Of a DNA stretch of 64,000 nt, positions 5,714-63,553 are shown piece after piece. This DNA comes from Octopus vulgaris (lineage: Eukaryota): positions 209,870,001 to 209,934,000 of the forward strand of contig OX597814.1 of the NCBI GenBank assembly GCA_951406725.2, given 5' to 3'. The notes beneath the pieces are model-generated. The model did not search any database, was not told the DNA's origin, and saw only the letters and a program-made list of their open reading frames with translations. The first letter of the stretch is position 1; each line of letters starts with the position of its first letter. The position numbers and the translations under genes are program-made.

Positions 5714-6097
5714 GTGGAGGCGCAATGGCCCAGTGGTTAGGGCAGCGGACTCGCGGTCATAGGATCGCGGTTTCGATCCCCAGACCGGGCGTTGTGAGTG
5801 TTTATTGAGCGAAAACGCCTAAAGCTCCACGAGGCTCCGGCAGGGGATGGTGGTGATCCCTGCTGTACTCTTTCACCACAACTGTCTCTCACTCTTGCTT
5901 CCTGTTTCTGTTGTACCTGTATTTCAAAGGGCCGGCCTTGTCACTCTCTGTGTCACGCTGAATATCCCCGAGAACTACGTTAAGGGTACACGTGTCTGTG
6001 GAGTGCTCAGCGACTTACACGTTAATTTCACGAGCAGGCTGTTCCGTTGATTCGGATCAACCGGAACCCTCGTCGTCGTAACCGACGGAGTGCTTCC
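5714..6097 (+). mobile_element. tRNA-derived SINE (head B + tail Y), full length, young
   Basis: A box TGGCCCAGTGG, B box GTTTCGATCCC; 12-bp TSD aatactaatagt (5702-5713, 6098-6109); near-identical inverted copy at 32151-32537. Confidence 0.93.
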
Positions 6098-6129
6098 AAT
6101 ACTAATAGTAATAATTAATCAAATATATC

Positions 6130-10186: not shown

Positions 10187-10246
10187 GTGTAGTATGTATG
10201 TATTTATGTATGTATGTGTGTGTGTGTGTATGTATATGCATGTATA

Positions 10247-10652
10247 TACAGTTTTTAGTTACAGCTGTTTCAGGAATAGGCGCGCGACTGGGAAGCAAGG
10301 TTCTGACTACACAGCCACACTTGTAAATAAATAGGAAAGATTCGGGGAATTAATTACAAGGTAGCTAAATTTTGCTTAGATGTATATATATATATGTGTA
10401 TAGGAAAAATTGAAAAAGGAGTTAACAGTCATTTCAATTGTTCCTATTTTCTCTTAAATACGACTTACTTATCCTGGAATCAAATCACACACAATAGTGA
10501 TCATTGTTTCTTAAGACATCTAAGCAACATTTAGCCACCTTGTAATTATTTCCCTGAATCTTTCCTATTTAGTTACAAGTGTGGCTGTGTAGCCAGAACC
10601 TTGCTTCCCAGTCGCGCGCCTATTCCTGAAACAGCTGTAACTAAAAACTGTA
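10247..10652. repeat. Long inverted repeat (arms 10247-10383 and 10516-10652)
   Basis: ~137-bp arms reverse-complementary with few mismatches; ~132-bp spacer. Confidence 0.9.
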
Positions 10653-11190
10653 AATCTCTCTCGTTTCTTTCAGTTACAACATTATACTTGCTATGAGTAT
10701 CTCCTTCCTGCCAAAACTTCGTTGTATTCATAACATAACCTTATTTTCTTCCTCTTCCTGGAGTCTCTCTCTCTCTATATATATATATGCATCACAACTA
10801 CTATGACTATACTAATGCTGAGTTGTTATTGATCTCCTGTCATTTATATTTCTTTATGTATTTGTTTTTCTCCAAATGTAGTATGAATATAAATGTCATA
10901 ATCTAAACCGATACCTTTTCTTTGCCCGTCTATTTTTTTTATTCTATTACACAAACAAAGCGCACACGCACACACGCATTCACACACACATTTTCGAAAT
11001 GCGGAGTTGATGAAAGAGGGACAATTGATGAAGGAAATGTTCTTCCTGTTGCATGTCTCGGTTCTCTGTTTTTTTCGTTGTACGAAAAAAGTTCGTATTC
11101 TATGTTTTTGTTTTTATGTTTTCGTTTCTCATTGTGTCTACATTTTTATGTCTTGTACCCATATATGCATATATATATATACATACATAC

Positions 11191-27544: not shown

Positions 27545-27755
27545 AATTTCAAATTTAGGCACAAGGCCAGCAGTTGTGGGTGAGTGGTTAAGTCGATTAA
27601 ACCGACTCAAGTGCTCAACTGGTACTCACTTTATTGACCCTGTAATGATGAAAGGCAAAGTCGACCACGGCAGAATTTAAACTCGGAAAGTAAAGTCGGT
27701 CGAAATATCGTTTCGAATTTTACTCGGCATGCTAACCATTCTGCAAGCTCGCCAT
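27545..27755 (-). mobile_element. SINE family D, full length, diverged
   Basis: Aligns with 34140-34362 core and head. Confidence 0.8.
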
Positions 27756-32150: not shown

Positions 32151-32537
32151 TGGATGGAAGCACTCCGTCGGTTCCGACGACGAGGGTTCCGGTTGATCCG
32201 GATCAACGGAACAGCTTGCTCGTGAAATTAACGTGTAAGTGGCTGAGCACTCCACAGACACGTGTACCTTAACGTAGTTCTCGGGGATATTCAGCGTGAC
32301 ACAGAGAGTGACAAGGCCGGCCCTTTGAAATACAGGTACAACAGAAACAGGAAGTAAGAGTGAGAGAAAGTTGTGGTGAAAGAGTACAGCAGGGATCACC
32401 ACCATCCCCTGCCGGAGCCTCGTGGAGCTTTAGGTGTTTTCGCTCAATAAACACTCACAACGCCCGGTCTGGGAATCGAAACCGCGATCCTACGACCACG
32501 AGTCCGCTGCCATAACCACTGGGCCATTGCGCCTCCA
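32151..32537 (-). mobile_element. tRNA-derived SINE (head B + tail Y), full length
   Basis: Near-identical to 5714-6097; TSD aaataataca at 32141-32150 and 32539-32548. Confidence 0.93.
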
Positions 32538-34033: not shown

Positions 34034-34139
34034 GATAGATAGATAGTTAGATAGATAGATAGATAGATAGATAGATTGATAGATATACATATACATATGC
34101 ATGCACACATACATGCAATACGCACGTGCTATATATACC

Positions 34140-34362
34140 TATTTCTTTACTACCCACAAGGGGCTAAACATAGAGAGGACAAACAAGGACAGACAAACGG
34201 ATTAAGTCGATTATATCGACCTCAGTGCGTAACTGGTACTTATTTAATCGACCCCGAAAGGATGAAAGGCAAAGTCGACCTCGGCGGAATTTGAACTCAG
34301 AACGTAACGGCAGACGAAATACGGCTACGCATTTCGCCCGGCGTACAAACATTTCTGCCAGC
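34140..34362 (-). mobile_element. tRNA-derived SINE family D (subfamily D2), young
   Basis: minus: gctggcagaa A-box region, GAGTTCAAATTCC B box, gtcgactttgcctttcatcctttcggggtcgat central domain; 18-bp TSD gcacgtgctat(a/t)... at 34122-34139 and 34361-34378 with one mismatch. Confidence 0.9.
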
Positions 34363-35856
34363 ACGTGCTATAAATACCGTCATAGTTTGGAAACACAATA
34401 GTTCGGCAGCTTTATATATCACGTCTGCAAGCAATCCTTCAGTCTCGAATACATATGCATGTTGCATTTATGAAAAAAAAAAAAAACGAGAAAAACTGAG
34501 AGAGCTTCTTGCAAAAGGCAGAATGAGAAAAGCTAGAACGAGAAAGCTGAATGGAAATGGGAAAAATTAAAATTAATCTAATATAATGCAACGACGACTT
34601 AGTCTCCAACAAATAGACACAAAATATTCGAACACATCTTAAATTGCCGACATGTTCTAATATTTCTGCTAACTTCGGGTACGTGACCAAAATTACAGAC
34701 AGATAAGGGGTCAATCCCATGTTCAGCCACACCACTGTATACATGACCAACTATAGGATTTAGTACTTGTCAGTAATAAATTAACCAAGTTTAGACTAAT
34801 AATATCAGTCAAAACATGAAGATGCCATCGGAACACTAATAACGGGATTTATTCTGAAGCATGTCAATTTTCTATCTTTGATAAATATTATACTCTACTT
34901 GCCGTGTGGAAAAAAAACAAAAATAAGGCAAAAGCATTTAAATAATCCTACTAACATTCCCTTCCAATATTTATTTCTAAAATTCTGGTTAAGCAACAGA
35001 AAATTTTGCATGTATATATGCATATACATATGTTATGTGTGTGTATATATATATATGTATAGTGTGTTTCGGGATAGTCACTTTTTTTCCAAATAAACAC
35101 ACGCACTAATAGTACATGTATATGTGTATGCATGCATGTATGTATGTATGTATGTATGGGTATTTATGTGAGCATTGGTATGCGCACATAGATTGAAAGA
35201 TATAGAGATACAGAAATATATATTCACAGAAATATATGTTAACACACACTCATTTATGTATTTGTGTTTACTGACACATATACATATAAAATAGAAATAT
35301 CCTTACCCTGTCTAAAAGTTTTGGATACATAAACTTGTTTAGAAACAAAAATATATATTGTAAAGAAAAATATGAATGTTGACGTATAGAGAAAGTAGTA
35401 CAAATTCTTCTGAATTAATAACCAACAAACTTATTTATCAGTGTGTAAGATTTAAGTTATTTTTGCATCGCAACCAAATAATGTAATTCACAACATATAA
35501 TTTATATGTTTACGATAGTATTATATCCTCCGGTTCCAAATTCTGAAAGATTATTGCAACAAAATGATATTATTTGAAAAAATATTATGTCATAGGGATA
35601 ATTTCAGGAGTAAAATATATACTTCACATACGAATAATATAGTCTAGAATGTACAAGATTTACATAAACTTATTTGGAGACATGGCATAGATGAGAGAGG
35701 GAAAGAGAAAAGAAAAACGAATGGAGGTAAGGAGAGAGGGAAGCGGAAAGAAAAAGAGAGAGAAAGAGAGGCGGGAGAGAAAAGCGAAAAAGAAGCAGAA
35801 TATTAAATTTTAGATTTCACAATTCTGGTCACATTTTTGTTTTTGGCTTTCAGAAC

Positions 35857-36825: not shown

Positions 36826-37262
36826 GGAGGCGTTGAGCTGGCAGAATCGAACCAACGCCGATATCCATTTCTTTACTACCCAGAAGGGGCTAAACACAGA
36901 GAGGACAAACAAGGACAGACAAATGGATTAAGTCGATTATATCGACCCCAGTGCGTATCTGGTACTTATTTACTTGACCCCGAAATAATCAAAAGGCAAA
37001 GTCGACCTCAGCGGAATTTGAACTCAGATCGTAGCGGCAGAGGAAATACCGCTAAGCATTTAGCCCAACGTGCTAACGGTTCTGCCAGATCGCCGCCGAT
37101 ACCATTTTGCCCGTTTTTACATTCAGGGTTCAAATTCCGCCGAGGTTGAGTTTGCCATTCATCCTTTCGGGGTCGATGAAATAAGTTCCAGTTGAACACC
37201 AGGGTCGATGTAATCGACTTATTCCCTTTGCCAGAATTGCAGGCCTTGTACCAAAACTATTA
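36826..37262 (+). mobile_element. SINE D copy interrupted by an antisense SINE D2 (36866-37097)
   Basis: Head ggaggcgttgagctggcagaa at 36826, body resumes near 37098; duplicated target cgccgata(t)ccattt on both sides of the insert. Confidence 0.8.
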
Positions 37263-37269
37263 TTATTAG

Positions 37270-37450
37270 TGAGGTGTGTGTTGGCAAAATCCTTAGCACG
37301 CCGAGTAAAATACTTAGCGGCGTTTCGTCCGTCTGTATGTTCTGGGTTCAAAGGTTGCCGAGGTCGTCTGTGCCTTTCATCCTTTCGGGGTCGATAAAAT
37401 AAATACCAGTTGAGCACTGAGGTCGATATAAGCGAGCAGACCCCTTCCTT
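37270..37450 (+). mobile_element. SINE family D
   Basis: ttggcaaaatccttagcacgccg...gcctttcatcctttcggggtcgataaa. Confidence 0.8.
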
Positions 37451-37511
37451 TATTCCCATTATTTGCCTTATTTACAATTGAAGGATATTTGTCCTCATCC
37501 TGTTTGTTGTT

Positions 37512-37557
37512 AGCACAACTTTTCAGCTGATAGTCCCTCCAGCCTTCATCAGGTATA
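37512..37557 (-). ncRNA. Minimal hammerhead motif, decayed copy
   Basis: minus: tatac CTGATGA a ggctg-gagggactat-cagct GAAAA GTT gtgct. Confidence 0.65.
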
Positions 37558-37612
37558 CTGGAGAAATTTCGAACCTGGGTTCTCATTCCCAAGGTATTTT
37601 TCAATGTTGTTG

Positions 37613-37671
<59 letters not shown>

Positions 37672-37683
37672 GTTATTATTATT

Positions 37684-38237
37684 GAGTGAGAGAGCAGTTC
37701 ATGCCATCAAAGTGACACTGGGGTAAAATATACGAAGCCCAATATACCCATCATGACTACCCGCCTGATAAAGGTACACCAGGCACATGCATCACAACCA
37801 TATGTGCGCGACATGGTGATCTCATATCAAGATAAACAGCACATGACCTTGCAGGTGGGGCCCAGTTAGAATTTTCTTCAGGTTGAGTAGCCCATCCCGC
37901 TCAAACGATCCCTGAATAAGGGTTGTTTAAGGATGTTGAAAGAACCACCCATGTTTCCAGAGGTGAACTATTCAAACCCCAAAGAATCCCTCTCAACACA
38001 TGGCTATGATGCTCCCCCACTACTTCTGCTCGTGATCAGAGATGCACATATCGTCAGCCACTAAGGGACATGCTCAACTGGTTAAGGTCAAACAACTGAC
38101 AAGCAAATCTGTGGTATTGAGCAGAATATTTGCTGTAGCCCATCTTTTATACCAAGACAAAACAATGTACATGATAACACTTCCAATCAGTTAAGATCAG
38201 AAGCCATGAGAGCCACTGCCTGGTATTGCATCAGGGC

Positions 38238-38240
<3 letters not shown>
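37684..38240 (-). mobile_element. ~560-bp non-coding element E inserted in (AAT)n
   Basis: Second copy at 55284-55845 in opposite orientation; both flanked by (AAT)n on both sides. Confidence 0.85.
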
Positions 38241-38319
<79 letters not shown>

Positions 38320-38511
38320 GTTATTATTATCATTATTATTATTATTATTATTCAGGCCATTGCCTGGAATCGAACTCGGAATCTTGGGGTTAGTAGCCCG
38401 CGCTCTTAACCACTGCGCCATATCCGTCACTACAAATATCCGTCAATTGTAAATAAGGTAAATAATGTACATAATTCCTCATCTCTTAAATATAGAACTG
38501 TACCCTCCTTT

Positions 38512-38548
<37 letters not shown>

Positions 38549-38640: not shown

Positions 38641-38749
38641 ATAATTTTTTCATAACGTTTTCAGCAAATCCCCTGCAAGTTCCTACTGCACCACAAAATA
38701 GTTTCCTTTCCTTGAGGTGTTTTTGGTTTTTGATGTTCCATGTGGGGGT

Positions 38750-38915
38750 ACTAGTCGATTATATCGATCCCTGTGCTTAACCGGTACTTATTTCATCGAC
38801 CCTGAAAGGATGAAAAGCAAAGTTGACCTCATCGAAATTTAAACTCAGTACGTGAAGGCGGGCAAGATGCTGGTAGGATATTTTGTCCTGCGTGCTAACA
38901 ATTCTGCCAGCTCAT
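38750..38915 (-). mobile_element. SINE family D, diverged
   Basis: gtcgattatatcgat...gaaaggatgaaaagcaaagttgacctc...ttctgccagctc. Confidence 0.8.
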
Positions 38916-39351: not shown

Positions 39352-39848
39352 ATTTGAACGCAGAACGTAAAATAGCGAGAAATGCACCTAAGCATTTTGT
39401 CCGACACGCTAACGATTCAGCCAGCCCGCCGCCTTCTACTTTTTGTAATAACCTTTTCTTCTCTAGGCACAAGGCCCGAAATTTTGGGGGAGAGGGCCAG
39501 TTCATTAGATCGACCCCAGTACTTAACTGGTACTTAATTTATCAACCCCGAAAAGATGAAAGGCAAGGTCGACCTCGGCGGAATTTGAACTCAGAACATA
39601 AAGACAGACGAAATACCTATTTCTTTACTACCCACAAGGGGCTAAACACAGAAGGAACAAACAAGGACAGACAAACTGATTAAGTCGATTATATTGACAC
39701 CAGTGCGTAACTGGTACTTATTTAGTAGACCCCGAAAGGATGAAAGACAAAGTCGACCTCGGCGGAATTTGAGCTCAGAACGTAACAGCAGACGAAATAC
39801 GGCAACGCATTTCGCCCGGCGTGCTAACGTTTCTACCAGCTCGCTGCC
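39352..39848 (-). mobile_element. SINE D cluster: head fragment (39352-39433) plus D2/D1 dimer (39453-39848)
   Basis: Two tandem D bodies flanked by duplicated ttctactt(t/c)tt(g/a)taataac. Confidence 0.8.
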
Positions 39849-40175
39849 TTCTACTTCTTATAATAACAGCAATGATTTGCTATCTCATGACATTTTAAAT
39901 TATGGGGAAACGGTACATTCTATAAAATCAGTTCTTGCACAAAATAGGTACTTATTTTAGCAACAACCATCATAATTTCAATTCGGAGAAATTTGAATAT
40001 TCTACATCAGTTTATCCGACACGCTAGCGATTCTACCATCGAAATTGACACATAAAGTGCAAAAAGTTGGGATAAAGACACCAATAGATACAGATGAATT
40101 GCAAAATATCCAAGTAATTCTTAAGGATGGCATTGTAAATGTGCCATGTGTGTTCATATGTGCATCAGCACACGG

Positions 40176-40221: not shown

Positions 40222-40613
40222 AATATTAGGGAATAAATCCAAATTTACAGGGAAAAAAATCAGATTTAGGATTAAATCCAATTTTATAGTAAAATATTAT
40301 AATATATTATTAGAGACAAAACCACTATTTTGCAAAACAAACAAGGAAAGACTTAATCAATACATAAAATTTTAATAAATAGTCAAAAAAAACCGCCACT
40401 ACAATTGTTTCTTGTCTTGATCGACAATATTCAGGTGGACTTCCAATAAGTCAGTTTCAAATTATTGAAACTGACTTATTGGAAGTCCACCTGAAGATTG
40501 TCGATCAAGACAAGAAACAATTGTAGTGGCGGTTTTTTTTGACTATTTATTAATATTTTATGTATTGATTAAGTCTTTCCTTGTTTGTTTTGCAAAATAG
40601 TGGTTTTATCTCT

Positions 40614-40623
<10 letters not shown>
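40217..40623. mobile_element. Penelope-type inverted pseudo-LTR palindrome with two HHR copies
   Basis: Arms 40302-40460 and 40465-40623, near-perfect reverse complements with 4-nt spacer; left arm extends further to ~40217; in (TA)n. Confidence 0.85.
40487..40529 (+). ncRNA. Type I hammerhead ribozyme with complete core
   Basis: ccac CTGAAGA ttgtc-gatcaa-gacaa GAAAC aatt GTA gtgg; predicted cleavage after 40525. Confidence 0.85.
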
Positions 40624-40667
<44 letters not shown>

Positions 40668-47048: not shown

Positions 47049-47370
47049 GAAGGCGCGTGGCTTAGTGGTTAGGGGCATTCGGCACATGATCGTAAGGTCA
47101 TGAGTTCAATTCCCGGCGGCACGTTGTGTCCTTGAGCAAGACTCTTTATTTCACATTGCTCCAGTCCACTCAGCTGGCAAAAATGAGTTGTACCTGTATT
47201 TCAAAGGGCCATTCTTGTCACACTCTGTGTCACGCTGAATCTCTCTGAGAACTACGTTAGGGGTACATGTGTCTGTGGAGTGTTCAGCCACTTGCACGTT
47301 AATTTCACGAGCAAGCTGTTCCGTTGATCGTATCAGCTGGGACCCTCATCGTTGCAACCGATGGAGTGCT

Positions 47371-54959: not shown

Positions 54960-55157
54960 TACATAACAAAAACACCAGGACTTACAAACACATATAACAT
55001 ACAGAAAATTGCACTACTAGGCACTGCACACATCCTACGCAGAACACTTTCCATACAATAACCAACAGAACATCACAACAAATCACAGCACATACTCAAG
55101 GCACACAGAGCTGCGCTCGGTAGTGAGTGAAAGCACGCTATAAATATAAAACTACTG

Positions 55158-55158: not shown

Positions 55159-55845
<687 letters not shown>

Positions 55846-55869: not shown

Positions 55870-56063
55870 AGACAACATTATCGATACCGACAGGTATATA
55901 TAAATTTCAGAAAACAGCGCCACTATGCACCGTACATATCCTACGCAAAACACTTTAAATATGGAGAAAATAAGAACACCACAACAAACCACAACAAATA
56001 CCCAAAGCACACAGAGCTGCGCTCGGTAGTGCAGTGAAAGCCCGTGATAAGATTATAATTACT

Positions 56064-56065
<2 letters not shown>
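55870..56065 (+). mobile_element. R4/Dong-like LINE 3' end, second copy
   Basis: FQKTAPLCTVHILRKTL plus the same 3'UTR gcacacagagctgcgctcggtagtg as ~55101-55125. Confidence 0.8.
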
Positions 56066-56440
<375 letters not shown>

Positions 56441-56449
56441 CTATCTAAA

Positions 56450-57672
56450 AAGATCTTCCAATGGGACTGCCTGTCCCCACTGATTTTTGTAATGTGCTTG
56501 ATACCACTGACACTGATTCTGAGGAAAGCAAAATTTAGGTATGTATTCAAAAGTCGCCACAAAAAGTCAACCATTTGCTATTCATAGATGACATCAAACT
56601 TTATGGTAAAGATGAAGCCCAAGTCAGTTCTTTCGTTGATACGGTGTATAACTTCAGTGCTGATATCAGAATGGAGATCGGACAGAGAAAGTGTGGTGTG
56701 TTAGTATTTAAAAGAGGCAAAATCAAATGTATAGGAATCAATACCGTCATGGGAGGTTATGAAGCAGATAGAAGAGACCGGCTGTAAGTACTTGGGGATT
56801 TTGGAAATGGATAAATTAATGGAGAAAGAAGTGACAGAAAAATTTAAGGTGGAGTACTTACGCAGACTGAGACTGATCATAAAGTCGAAATTAAACGGAA
56901 GGAATAAGATCGAGGCTATCAACACCTGGGCAGTTTCACTCCTTATCTATGGAGCAGGGGTAATCGCATGGACAGTAGACGAATTAAACAGCTTAGACAG
57001 AAAGACAAGGAAATCGCTAAATAGGTATGGGTCACTCCACCCAAAAAGTGACACAGAGGGAGAAGAGGACTTATTGGATGTGAACATAGCATTAGAGCAG
57101 AAGAAAACAACATAGCATGGTATGTAATAAATGCCACAGAACCGCTATTATTAGAACTCGGAAGACCAGGCTCGTGTAGGTTGAACGATTGCAAAGACAA
57201 AGCAGTATACATGAAATTGAATAGGTCCTATGTGATTTTATGAGTCAGTGGGACCATGAGATTGAGAATAGGAAGCCGGACATAGGAAGTCTTAATTGAG
57301 AAAGAAAACAAACTATGCTGGATCAGAGACATACCACGCCCAGTTGACAACAAGTTGTGCTATAAGGAAGAAAGAAAAAAGTCGAGAGATATGACAGGTT
57401 AGCTTGGGAAGTTAAGCAGTTGTGGTCGAGGAAAAAGGTCGCAGTAATACCAATATTTGTTGGAGCCCTGGAAACAGTGAGCAAAAATCTCGAGACGTAT
57501 GTAGAACAGATAGGGGTTGCAATACGGGTGGAACTCTTGCAGGAAGCAGCACTGCTTGGGACCGCTCGAATACTCCGGAAGGTGCTCGAAGAATAAGATG
57601 TGTAACCTTATTTAACTGGTAGTGATCAGCTGACGCTGTAGTACATCTCCAGCGTTAGAAGCTGTGCAAAGA
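56450..57672 (+). mobile_element. R4/Dong-like LINE, RT to RLE 3' part with deletions
   Basis: IFQWDCLSPLIF, HLLFIDDIKLY, KYLGILE, EYLRRLRLIIKSKLNGRNKIEAINTWAV, RKPD, VGALG, LQEAALLGTARILRKVLE*; followed by (AAC/AAT)n. Confidence 0.9.
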
Positions 57673-63093: not shown

Positions 63094-63553
63094 ATATAGT
63101 TCTATATTTAAGACATGACGTATTATGTACACTATGTACATTATTTACATTTGACGTATATTTGTCCTCATCTTGTTTGTTGTTAACACCATAGGCATAT
63201 GGCGTAGTGGTTAAGAGCGTGGGCTACTAACCCCAAGATGCGGAGTTCGATTCCAAGCAGTGACCTGAATAATAATAATAGTAATAGTAATAATAATGAT
63301 AATAACATTGAAAAATACCTTAGGAATGAGAACCTAGGTTAGAAATTTCCCCAAGACACCTGATGATGGCTGGAGGTATATCAGCCGAAACGACAAAGAC
63401 AAAACCAAAATTTACATATTGTTGATGGTATTTAATTACCTACAGGTGAATTTCTGTAAGTAAGGATTAGGTGTGATCACAGAGTAGTTCATAAACAAAA
63501 CAAGAAACAAGATGAGCAAAAATATCCGTCAAATGTAAATATTGTACTATTAT
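63094..63553 (+). mobile_element. tRNA-head/(AAT)n/hammerhead element, copy 2, with inverted tail arm 63094-63189
   Basis: A box TGGCGTAGTGG (63200-63210), B box GAGTTCGATTCC (63243-63254), (AAT)n, HHR 63355-63392, tail resumes ~63495-63553. Confidence 0.85.
63355..63392 (+). ncRNA. Minimal hammerhead motif, interrupted just before the cleavage triplet
   Basis: gacac CTGATGA t ggctg-gaggtatat-cagcc GAAACG then unrelated sequence. Confidence 0.75.

Follow-up and report, generated by a model that had tools for sequence, protein, structure and literature searches.

Two inverted hammerhead repeats in an Octopus vulgaris locus: probable solo terminal repeats of a Penelope/Poseidon retroelement with a tRNA-like head

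A stretch of 64,000 nt from Octopus vulgaris (contig OX597814.1, positions 209,870,001 to 209,934,000; in the following referred to as the window) contains two copies of a repeat in which a tRNA-like head, an (AAT)n run, a linker, a hammerhead motif and a tail follow one another, and in which an inverted piece of the tail abuts the head. This raises the question of what kind of element these copies represent and how an inverted arm is repeatedly formed upon insertion. A sequence-only reading of the window had regarded them as a stand-alone tRNA-hammerhead element, spread as a mobile family by a reproducible insertion mechanism and subject to variable truncation.

Direct reading and alignment located the complete architecture, including the inverted tail arm, at 37457-38502 on the minus strand (copy B) and at 63095-63547 on the plus strand (copy A), 24.6 kb apart and in opposite orientations, as had been described (Table 1). 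Similarly, the inverted arm of copy B begins deeper in the tail, at family positions 117-187 as opposed to 93-187 in copy A, and the arm letters that had been quoted were recovered to within 1-2 nt. The hammerhead of copy B carries the changes that had been pointed out, a G-U instead of a G-C pair closing stem II and GAAAA instead of GAAAC, and two further differences reside in stem I; it is degenerate and likely to be inactive. The insert between head and inverted arm of copy B repeats 10 nt of the arm (ATATCCGTCA on the plus strand) and has ATAT in common with the head, and it probably arose by end-joining. In copy A, the target duplication comprises ~9 bp with one mismatch. Neither Rfam at its gathering threshold nor ARAGORN made a call in the 64-kb window, and the terms 'tRNA' and 'hammerhead' therefore denote motif and alignment evidence; Rfam scans by E-value yielded microsatellite or hairpin noise and one sub-threshold tRNA match on a head.

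Table 1. Positions of the repeat copies and their parts within the window.
Feature	Copy	Position	Strand	Remarks
Degenerate target-site duplication, left	B	37440..37453	+	8-nt exact core, about 12 nt with one indel
Linker, hammerhead and short tail (first codons of the PLE ORF)	B	37457..37608	-	Contiguous with the ORF in full-length copies
Minimal type I hammerhead	B	37513..37556	-	CUGAUGA core 37552-37546, predicted cut 37517/37516
(AAT)n run, downstream part	B	37609..37683	-	
Element E, 556-bp insert inside the AAT run	B	37684..38239	-	
(AAT)n run of the pLTR, upstream part	B	38240..38352	-	
tRNA-like head of the pLTR (+6..+79)	B	38350..38423	-	A box 38420-38410, anticodon-like hairpin, B box 38377-38366
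8-nt junction insert	B	38424..38431		Between head and inverted arm; direct reading and junction table
Inverted arm	B	38432..38502	+	Family positions 117-187, reaches the long (full-tail) end; 97% to family majority
Degenerate target-site duplication, right	B	38502..38513	+	
Element E, second window copy		55290..55845	+	91% identical to 37684-38239 (-)
Whole copy	A	63095..63547	+	Long inverted arm 63095-63189, head 63194-63270, hammerhead part 63304-63392, 106-nt interruption, short tail to 63547

The proposal of a mobile family was borne out by the distribution of its copies. Ten 100-kb blocks taken at arbitrary positions (1 Mb) contained 17 loci, corresponding to an estimated 48,000 loci genome-wide (95% interval 28,000-76,000), and 584 exact copies of a 50-nt hammerhead word were found. 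The inverted arm is likewise reproducible, as arms on both strands occur in 8 of the 17 random loci and in 69 of 106 loci which had not been chosen via the ORF. No tandem monomer arrays were present among the sampled loci, and the 1-Mb sample gave no evidence of a head-only SINE. A comparison of the flanks of copies A and B revealed nothing homologous past the element: the best local score between the 5' flanks was 29, in AT-rich sequence, and the best match between the 3' flanks (score 55) corresponds to a different SINE at a distance of 372 nt. This excludes a segmental duplication and, together with the thousands of dispersed candidates and the recovery of the flank-to-arm junction of copy A in independent sequencing runs, leaves virtually no room for the notion that the two copies result from duplication, an assembly artefact or chance. 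The insertion of copy A predates the split from a second organism, as a contig of the latter, with 39 differences in 469 bases, spans the junction between flank and inverted arm; an empty-site check on copy A showed no joint skipping the element among the matches listed. The family is old, since its arms are 80-97% identical to the family majority, the longest open frame among the protein-search matches is 569 aa, and copy A is shared with an organism that is 8% divergent in the flank.

The assumption of a stand-alone element had to be abandoned, as the unit turned out to be the pLTR plus tail of an ORF-bearing Penelope-like element (PLE). A search of the genome (2.8 Gb) with hammerhead and tail of copy B returned 3,511 candidates, 40 of which were scored. 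At locus L029, coding sequence for a reverse transcriptase (RT) and a GIY-YIG domain is located directly upstream of the head, and an inverted tail is found at the 5' end. The head lies 3' of the ORF stop in nine out of ten loci that had been found via the ORF end, and upstream walking showed the pLTR unit to be continuous into the ORF start in 8 of 30 loci, one of which (L114) includes its head. The hammerhead overlaps the first codons of the PLE ORF, the likely start ATG in copy B being located at 37586-37584 (-) and its short end at position ~152. In the family majority, linker, hammerhead and RT share one open frame of about 840 codons, with one alignment artefact and one internal stop. 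Its RT segment matches Pfam RVT_1 (E=2.4e-9) and has 678 relatives at E<=0.001, while the GIY-YIG domain was identified by motif and by the annotation of homologs and not by a Pfam match on the family's own C-terminus. The RT segment is 54% identical to an 836-aa protein of Anolis carolinensis (P0095), which, by its fit to the description, appears to be Poseidon_Ac (PAc), and a further protein with 63% identity (P0059) carries the hammerhead-overlapping peptide at its N-terminus. The majority translation is devoid of a Zn-finger linker, and the tentative placement in the Poseidon clade is based on this feature and on the RT identity to P0095.

Thus, given the ORF linkage on both sides and the RT relatives, copies A and B are solo pseudo-LTRs (pLTR plus tail) of an EN+ Penelope/Poseidon retroelement, and it is quite probable that they were formed by twin priming. 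The family combines an ORF encoding RT plus a GIY-YIG domain at the C-terminus with a pLTR on both sides of the ORF, an inverted 5'-truncated copy and a one-ended tail; the minimal type I hammerhead within the pLTR is recognized by its motif, without an Rfam match. An A/B-box head, as in tRNA-derived SINEs, is present, and an independent non-coding family with source copies of its own does not emerge. Tandem hammerhead monomers without an ORF, which define the non-LTR retrozymes, are also lacking, the copies being solo or head-to-head and ORF-linked. All 30 loci retrieved belong to the same family, none of them representing a sister family without the tRNA-like head, and the search yielded no relatives of the family in viral contigs.

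The architecture as such is already known for PLEs; the end rules are quantified here, and the tRNA-type head is the unusual part. As described for EN+ PLEs (Poseidon_Ac, PMC11167929; Adineta Pen2a, PMC3846280; general anatomy, PMC8557442), the element has a pLTR overlapping the start of an ORF for RT and C-terminal GIY-YIG, a minimal hammerhead within the pLTR, an inverted 5'-truncated copy, a one-ended tail of 30-40 nt, a target duplication of 8-10 bp and a palindrome at the 5' end of the pLTR. Inverted copy, one-sided tail, short duplication and 5' palindrome had thus been noted before (PMC8557442, PMC3846280), and the rule of one long and one short end is dealt with qualitatively in PMC11167929, PMC3846280 and PMC8557442. 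In contrast to the EN+ PLEs described there, the pLTR opens with a tRNA-like head containing A/B boxes, followed by an (AAT)n run. The hammerhead resembles the minimal type I hammerheads of metazoan PLEs (Cervera and de la Pena 2014, PMC4209133) in its CUGAUGA core, its short stem I and a palindromic stem III region for which dimerization is predicted to be required; the same work notes single motifs as well as pairs on opposite strands at distances of 100-700 bp. Unlike those hammerheads, the motif of copy B is missing core letters, and a full core is present in only 4 of 18 random arms.

A Pol III-type promoter followed by a type I hammerhead is also found in schistosome Sm-alpha (PMC6765202), and kinship with PLE pLTRs has similarly been described for metazoan non-LTR retrozymes (10.64898/2026.07.22.740005). 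However, Sm-alpha/Sj-alpha and the retrozymes are non-coding and tandem, whereas the unit described here forms the end of an ORF-bearing element and occurs in dispersed copies, solo or head-to-head. Likewise, the TRIMp3 elements Helenus, Cassandra and Ajax (Kojima 2024, PMC10886601) possess a Pol III promoter derived from a small RNA inside the terminal repeat of a retroelement, but these are non-autonomous LTR elements whose autonomous partners are expected to depend on Pol II, while here the tRNA-like head resides in the repeat of the protein-coding element itself. No ORF-bearing PLE with a tRNA-derived pLTR head was among the papers listed by literature searches, the main text of PMC13282606 mentioning neither hammerhead nor ribozyme; the family may already be held in Repbase or Dfam.

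How the inverted, one-tailed insertions of PLEs originate has been called unresolved (PMC8557442). To define the ends, 83 distinct two-arm insertions were pooled from all locus sets, a collection that is not unbiased, and ends at family positions 183-187 were classified as long and those at 139-166 as short. One long and one short end were found in 69 of the 83 insertions, two short ends in one and two long ends in none, while 13 have a decayed or interrupted end outside both classes. Copy B conforms to this pattern with a short forward end, a long inverted arm and the minor letter, a T variant, in both arms. From the variable truncation proposed earlier, the variation in arm length can thus be retained; the outer ends are not merely truncated but follow the one-long/one-short rule. 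A repeat of at least 8 nt, mostly about 10 bp, is present at both outer ends in 57 of the 83 insertions, compared to 4.1% of shuffled pairs. Element and target overlap by 3.3 nt at short ends, compared to 1.3 nt at long ends (33 pairs, P=0.005), and the arm reaching further 5' is the short-ended one in 38 cases and the long-ended one in 27, with 4 ties. When one arm carries the minor letter at a two-state site, the partner arm does so as well in 11 of 12 readable pairs (from 29 loci), the minor letter being present in 9 of 60 arms overall; disagreement at a variant site was observed in 3 of 30 arm pairs. Such shared variants reflect a shared source gene and are not proof of a single RNA molecule. 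A single arm is present at 37 of the 106 loci, and only 5 of the 24 that were scored have a duplication, so that either twin priming is not the sole route or later decay hides the duplication. As a separate observation, the tail in 5' regions of the L114/L124 type is predicted to fold into a 9-bp stem with the short ends in its loop and the long end at the foot of the next hairpin.

Twin priming would be the simplest reading of the two-arm insertions. The element protein may cut both target strands about 10 nt apart, whereupon one target 3' end would start a cDNA at the fixed long site (position 185-187) and the other, aided by microhomology, at the variable short site (141-161). Both cDNAs would extend toward the 5' end of one RNA (or of sister RNAs) and would be joined end to end, with microhomology, templated inserts or a brief snap-back at the junction. 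If RT started on the 5' pLTR of a full-length RNA, head-to-tail copies of ~350 nt would be the only product. As the start sites are located just inside the ORF start, the dominance of ORF-less copies, ORF sequence being absent from 16 of the 17 random loci and present in one, can be explained without the need for a separate SINE. In L1 twin priming, the second target strand primes a second cDNA, leaving a microhomology junction and a target duplication. The insertions proposed here would share a second-strand cDNA, a microhomology junction and a target duplication with that process; they differ from it in that the inverted piece in L1 is an upstream, non-overlapping part of the RNA, whereas here the arms start within ~35 nt of each other and the same sequence is copied twice. 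In vitro, PAc cuts and extends both target strands and is predicted to act as a dimer, and its RT has two internal start sites bounding the tail (PMC11167929). The long end of the octopus element, 86-95 nt past the hammerhead cut, is at the same distance from it as the main of these sites (85-92 nt; PMC11167929), and by analogy the one-long/one-short rule fits twin priming from two such start sites.

Two other routes to these copies have to be weighed. The inverted arm might be formed by fold-back or self-priming, either by snap-back of the cDNA at the GCCC-AC-GGGC palindrome or by self-priming on an antisense template as considered in PMC3846280, the difference in the tails being made by endonuclease resolution. 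This would agree with the variants common to both arms and with the palindromic junctions known from rotifer PLEs (PMC3846280), and among 25 heads that include G(-4), 20 leave the element at this position and 15 continue with 2-18 snap-back letters. However, the snap-back sequences are short and give way to the other arm, and in 38 of 69 pairs, those of both window copies included, each arm has sequence that is missing from its partner. Neither arm is thus a copy of the other; simple fold-back of a cDNA is disfavoured, and we rate this route as a whole as decidedly improbable. Alternatively, the solo copies might be a self-propagating, non-autonomous SINE or retrozyme resembling Sm-alpha; Pol III would transcribe them by way of their own A/B boxes, and the PLE protein would copy them in trans. 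The rarity of ORF sequence at random loci, the internal boxes within solo copies, the 41 of 85 heads that begin within -6..+5 and the precedents of PMC6765202 and 10.64898/2026.07.22.740005 are compatible with such a life cycle. On the other hand, ORF-bearing copies have the same unit as their pLTR, the two tail variants and the two 9-mer unit numbers all recur in ORF-linked 5' pLTRs, and the sampled loci contain no tandem monomer arrays. In addition, the RT of PAc needs RNA up to ~55-60 nt beyond its start sites (PMC11167929), and the corresponding sequence past the tail is absent from solo copies. A self-propagating SINE or retrozyme therefore appears unlikely, and an origin of the solo repeats from the PLE by twin priming is preferred.

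The head itself is tRNA-like. Compared to 25 distinct genomic tRNAs of seven isotypes, it scored best with tRNA-Arg(TCG) (61) and (TCT) (58), the maxima of the shuffled controls being 44 and 41, and thus above all 300 shuffles; on the head of copy L003, the Rfam tRNA model reached 23.8 bits, which is under the cut-off of 29. In the majority of 57 ORF-linked heads the A and B boxes are perfect, while the cloverleaf is decayed, and single-strand folding favoured neither a cloverleaf nor a monomeric hammerhead. The 5' limit of the element is sharp at G(-4), 13 nt before the A box. At L112 (~1788) and L116 (~1913, element orientation), a short A-run terminates an N-terminal ORF fragment and is joined exactly to G(-4) of a second pLTR, an arrangement that looks like a template jump from the 5' end of one RNA to an oligoadenylated fragment.

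The 5' end of the RNA might be set by the tRNA-type A/B boxes and Pol III, or by a TATA-like motif (TATAAG) located 28 nt upstream of G(-4) and hence by Pol II or with the aid of TBP. On the 2,645-nt majority unit including the pLTR, the sense strand has no T4 run as opposed to 29 A4 runs. This absence has a probability of 0.035 under synonymous shuffling, 0.002 under equal codon use and 0.22 under a second-order Markov model. Two control families of the same genome are not depleted of T4 (10 vs 8.8; 3 vs 3.7), and at least one T4 is present in 33 of 34 related ORFs of at least 350 aa (from 79 loci). However, two relatives without A/B boxes, L346 and L344, are T4-free over 1,992 and 2,264 aligned nt, and together with the Markov estimate this renders the absence of T4 non-diagnostic as proof of Pol III. 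No A/B boxes were found after the ORF in the 15 relatives with downstream sequence. RNA-seq of the second organism (2 runs, about 6%) showed equal strands, a depth tracking the genomic copy profile and no pile-up at start or end, and is uninformative on the promoter. Given the TATA-like word, the T4-free relatives and the RNA-seq, we consider it conceivable, at less than even chance, that the tRNA-type boxes and Pol III set the RNA 5' end.

With a slightly better than even chance, the head is instead a passenger: an old, AAT-tailed SINE or tRNA pseudogene would have inserted into the pLTR, and Pol II would transcribe the element from the TATA-like motif that an upstream tandem partner carries at its ORF end. 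RNAs made by Pol III are uncapped, which counts in favour of Pol II. The CCAAT/TATA-like motifs upstream of the hammerheads in the relatives L337 and L344, the existence of T4-free ORFs without A/B boxes and the LINE-like internal promoter of D. virilis Penelope (PMC2377424) point in the same direction. A passenger role is less readily reconciled with boxes kept perfect beside a decayed cloverleaf, with the position of the 5' limit relative to the A box and with a T4-free unit among relatives and control families that have T4. It might be speculated, and this more comprehensive proposal is doubtful, that a protein-coding PLE captured a tRNA-type internal promoter, that the whole 2.6-kb ORF is read by Pol III after oligo-T terminators were purged, and that internal RT initiation gave rise to tens of thousands of SINE-looking solo repeats with ends shaped by two-site twin priming. 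If Pol III indeed reads the ORF, this would break the working rule that autonomous retroelements rely on Pol II (or Pol I read-through) and that only non-coding parasites use Pol III, and the translation of an uncapped RNA would then call for an explanation.

Some 48,000 dispersed copies provide rules that any model of insertion must meet: one long and one short end, a duplication of ~10 bp, more microhomology at the short end and both arms from one source. These end rules link the pattern seen in the genome to the two start sites that have been measured for the RT of PAc. In practical terms, solo repeats of this PLE family will be mis-annotated as SINEs.

Element E, which interrupts the AAT run of copy B, is a non-coding repeat of 556 bp whose 5' end is fairly fixed. 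It is always located between (AAT)n runs and also occurs at L119, L160 and L167 as well as in unrelated AAT runs. The E sequence of copy B is 98-99% identical to that at L300, L155, L273 and L023, whereas the PLE parts at these loci are only 84-90% identical to copy B; E is thus an independent, younger insert in copy B, and a role as component of a composite mobile unit was rejected. Members of a young E subfamily with 98-99% identity have repeatedly inserted into the AAT run of the PLE repeat. E is likely a partner of an AAT-targeting Dong/R4 LINE. A decayed Dong/R4-like LINE in AAT runs is present at ~56300-57660 (+) and L251-L270, with a family majority frame of 790 aa, and the regions at about 54990-55155 and 55900-56065 are apparent 3' ends of another such LINE family.

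Several further repeats were observed. A second PLE family (L231-L250) has a Zn-finger-like motif before the GIY-YIG domain and an 811-aa majority frame followed by TA repeats. Around copy B, an older, unrelated SINE-like repeat, several of its copies being inverted neighbours, occupies positions 36861-37435, 38745-38913, 39464-39850, 34135-34365 and 27554-27751. A 384-bp repeat is located at 5715-6098, 32155-32537 and 47187-47370, two of the copies being 97% identical and in opposite orientation. Finally, near-perfect inverted repeats which resemble MITEs or foldback elements are present at 40285-40640 and 10244-10655 (176-nt arms 4 nt apart and 140-nt arms 132 nt apart, respectively).
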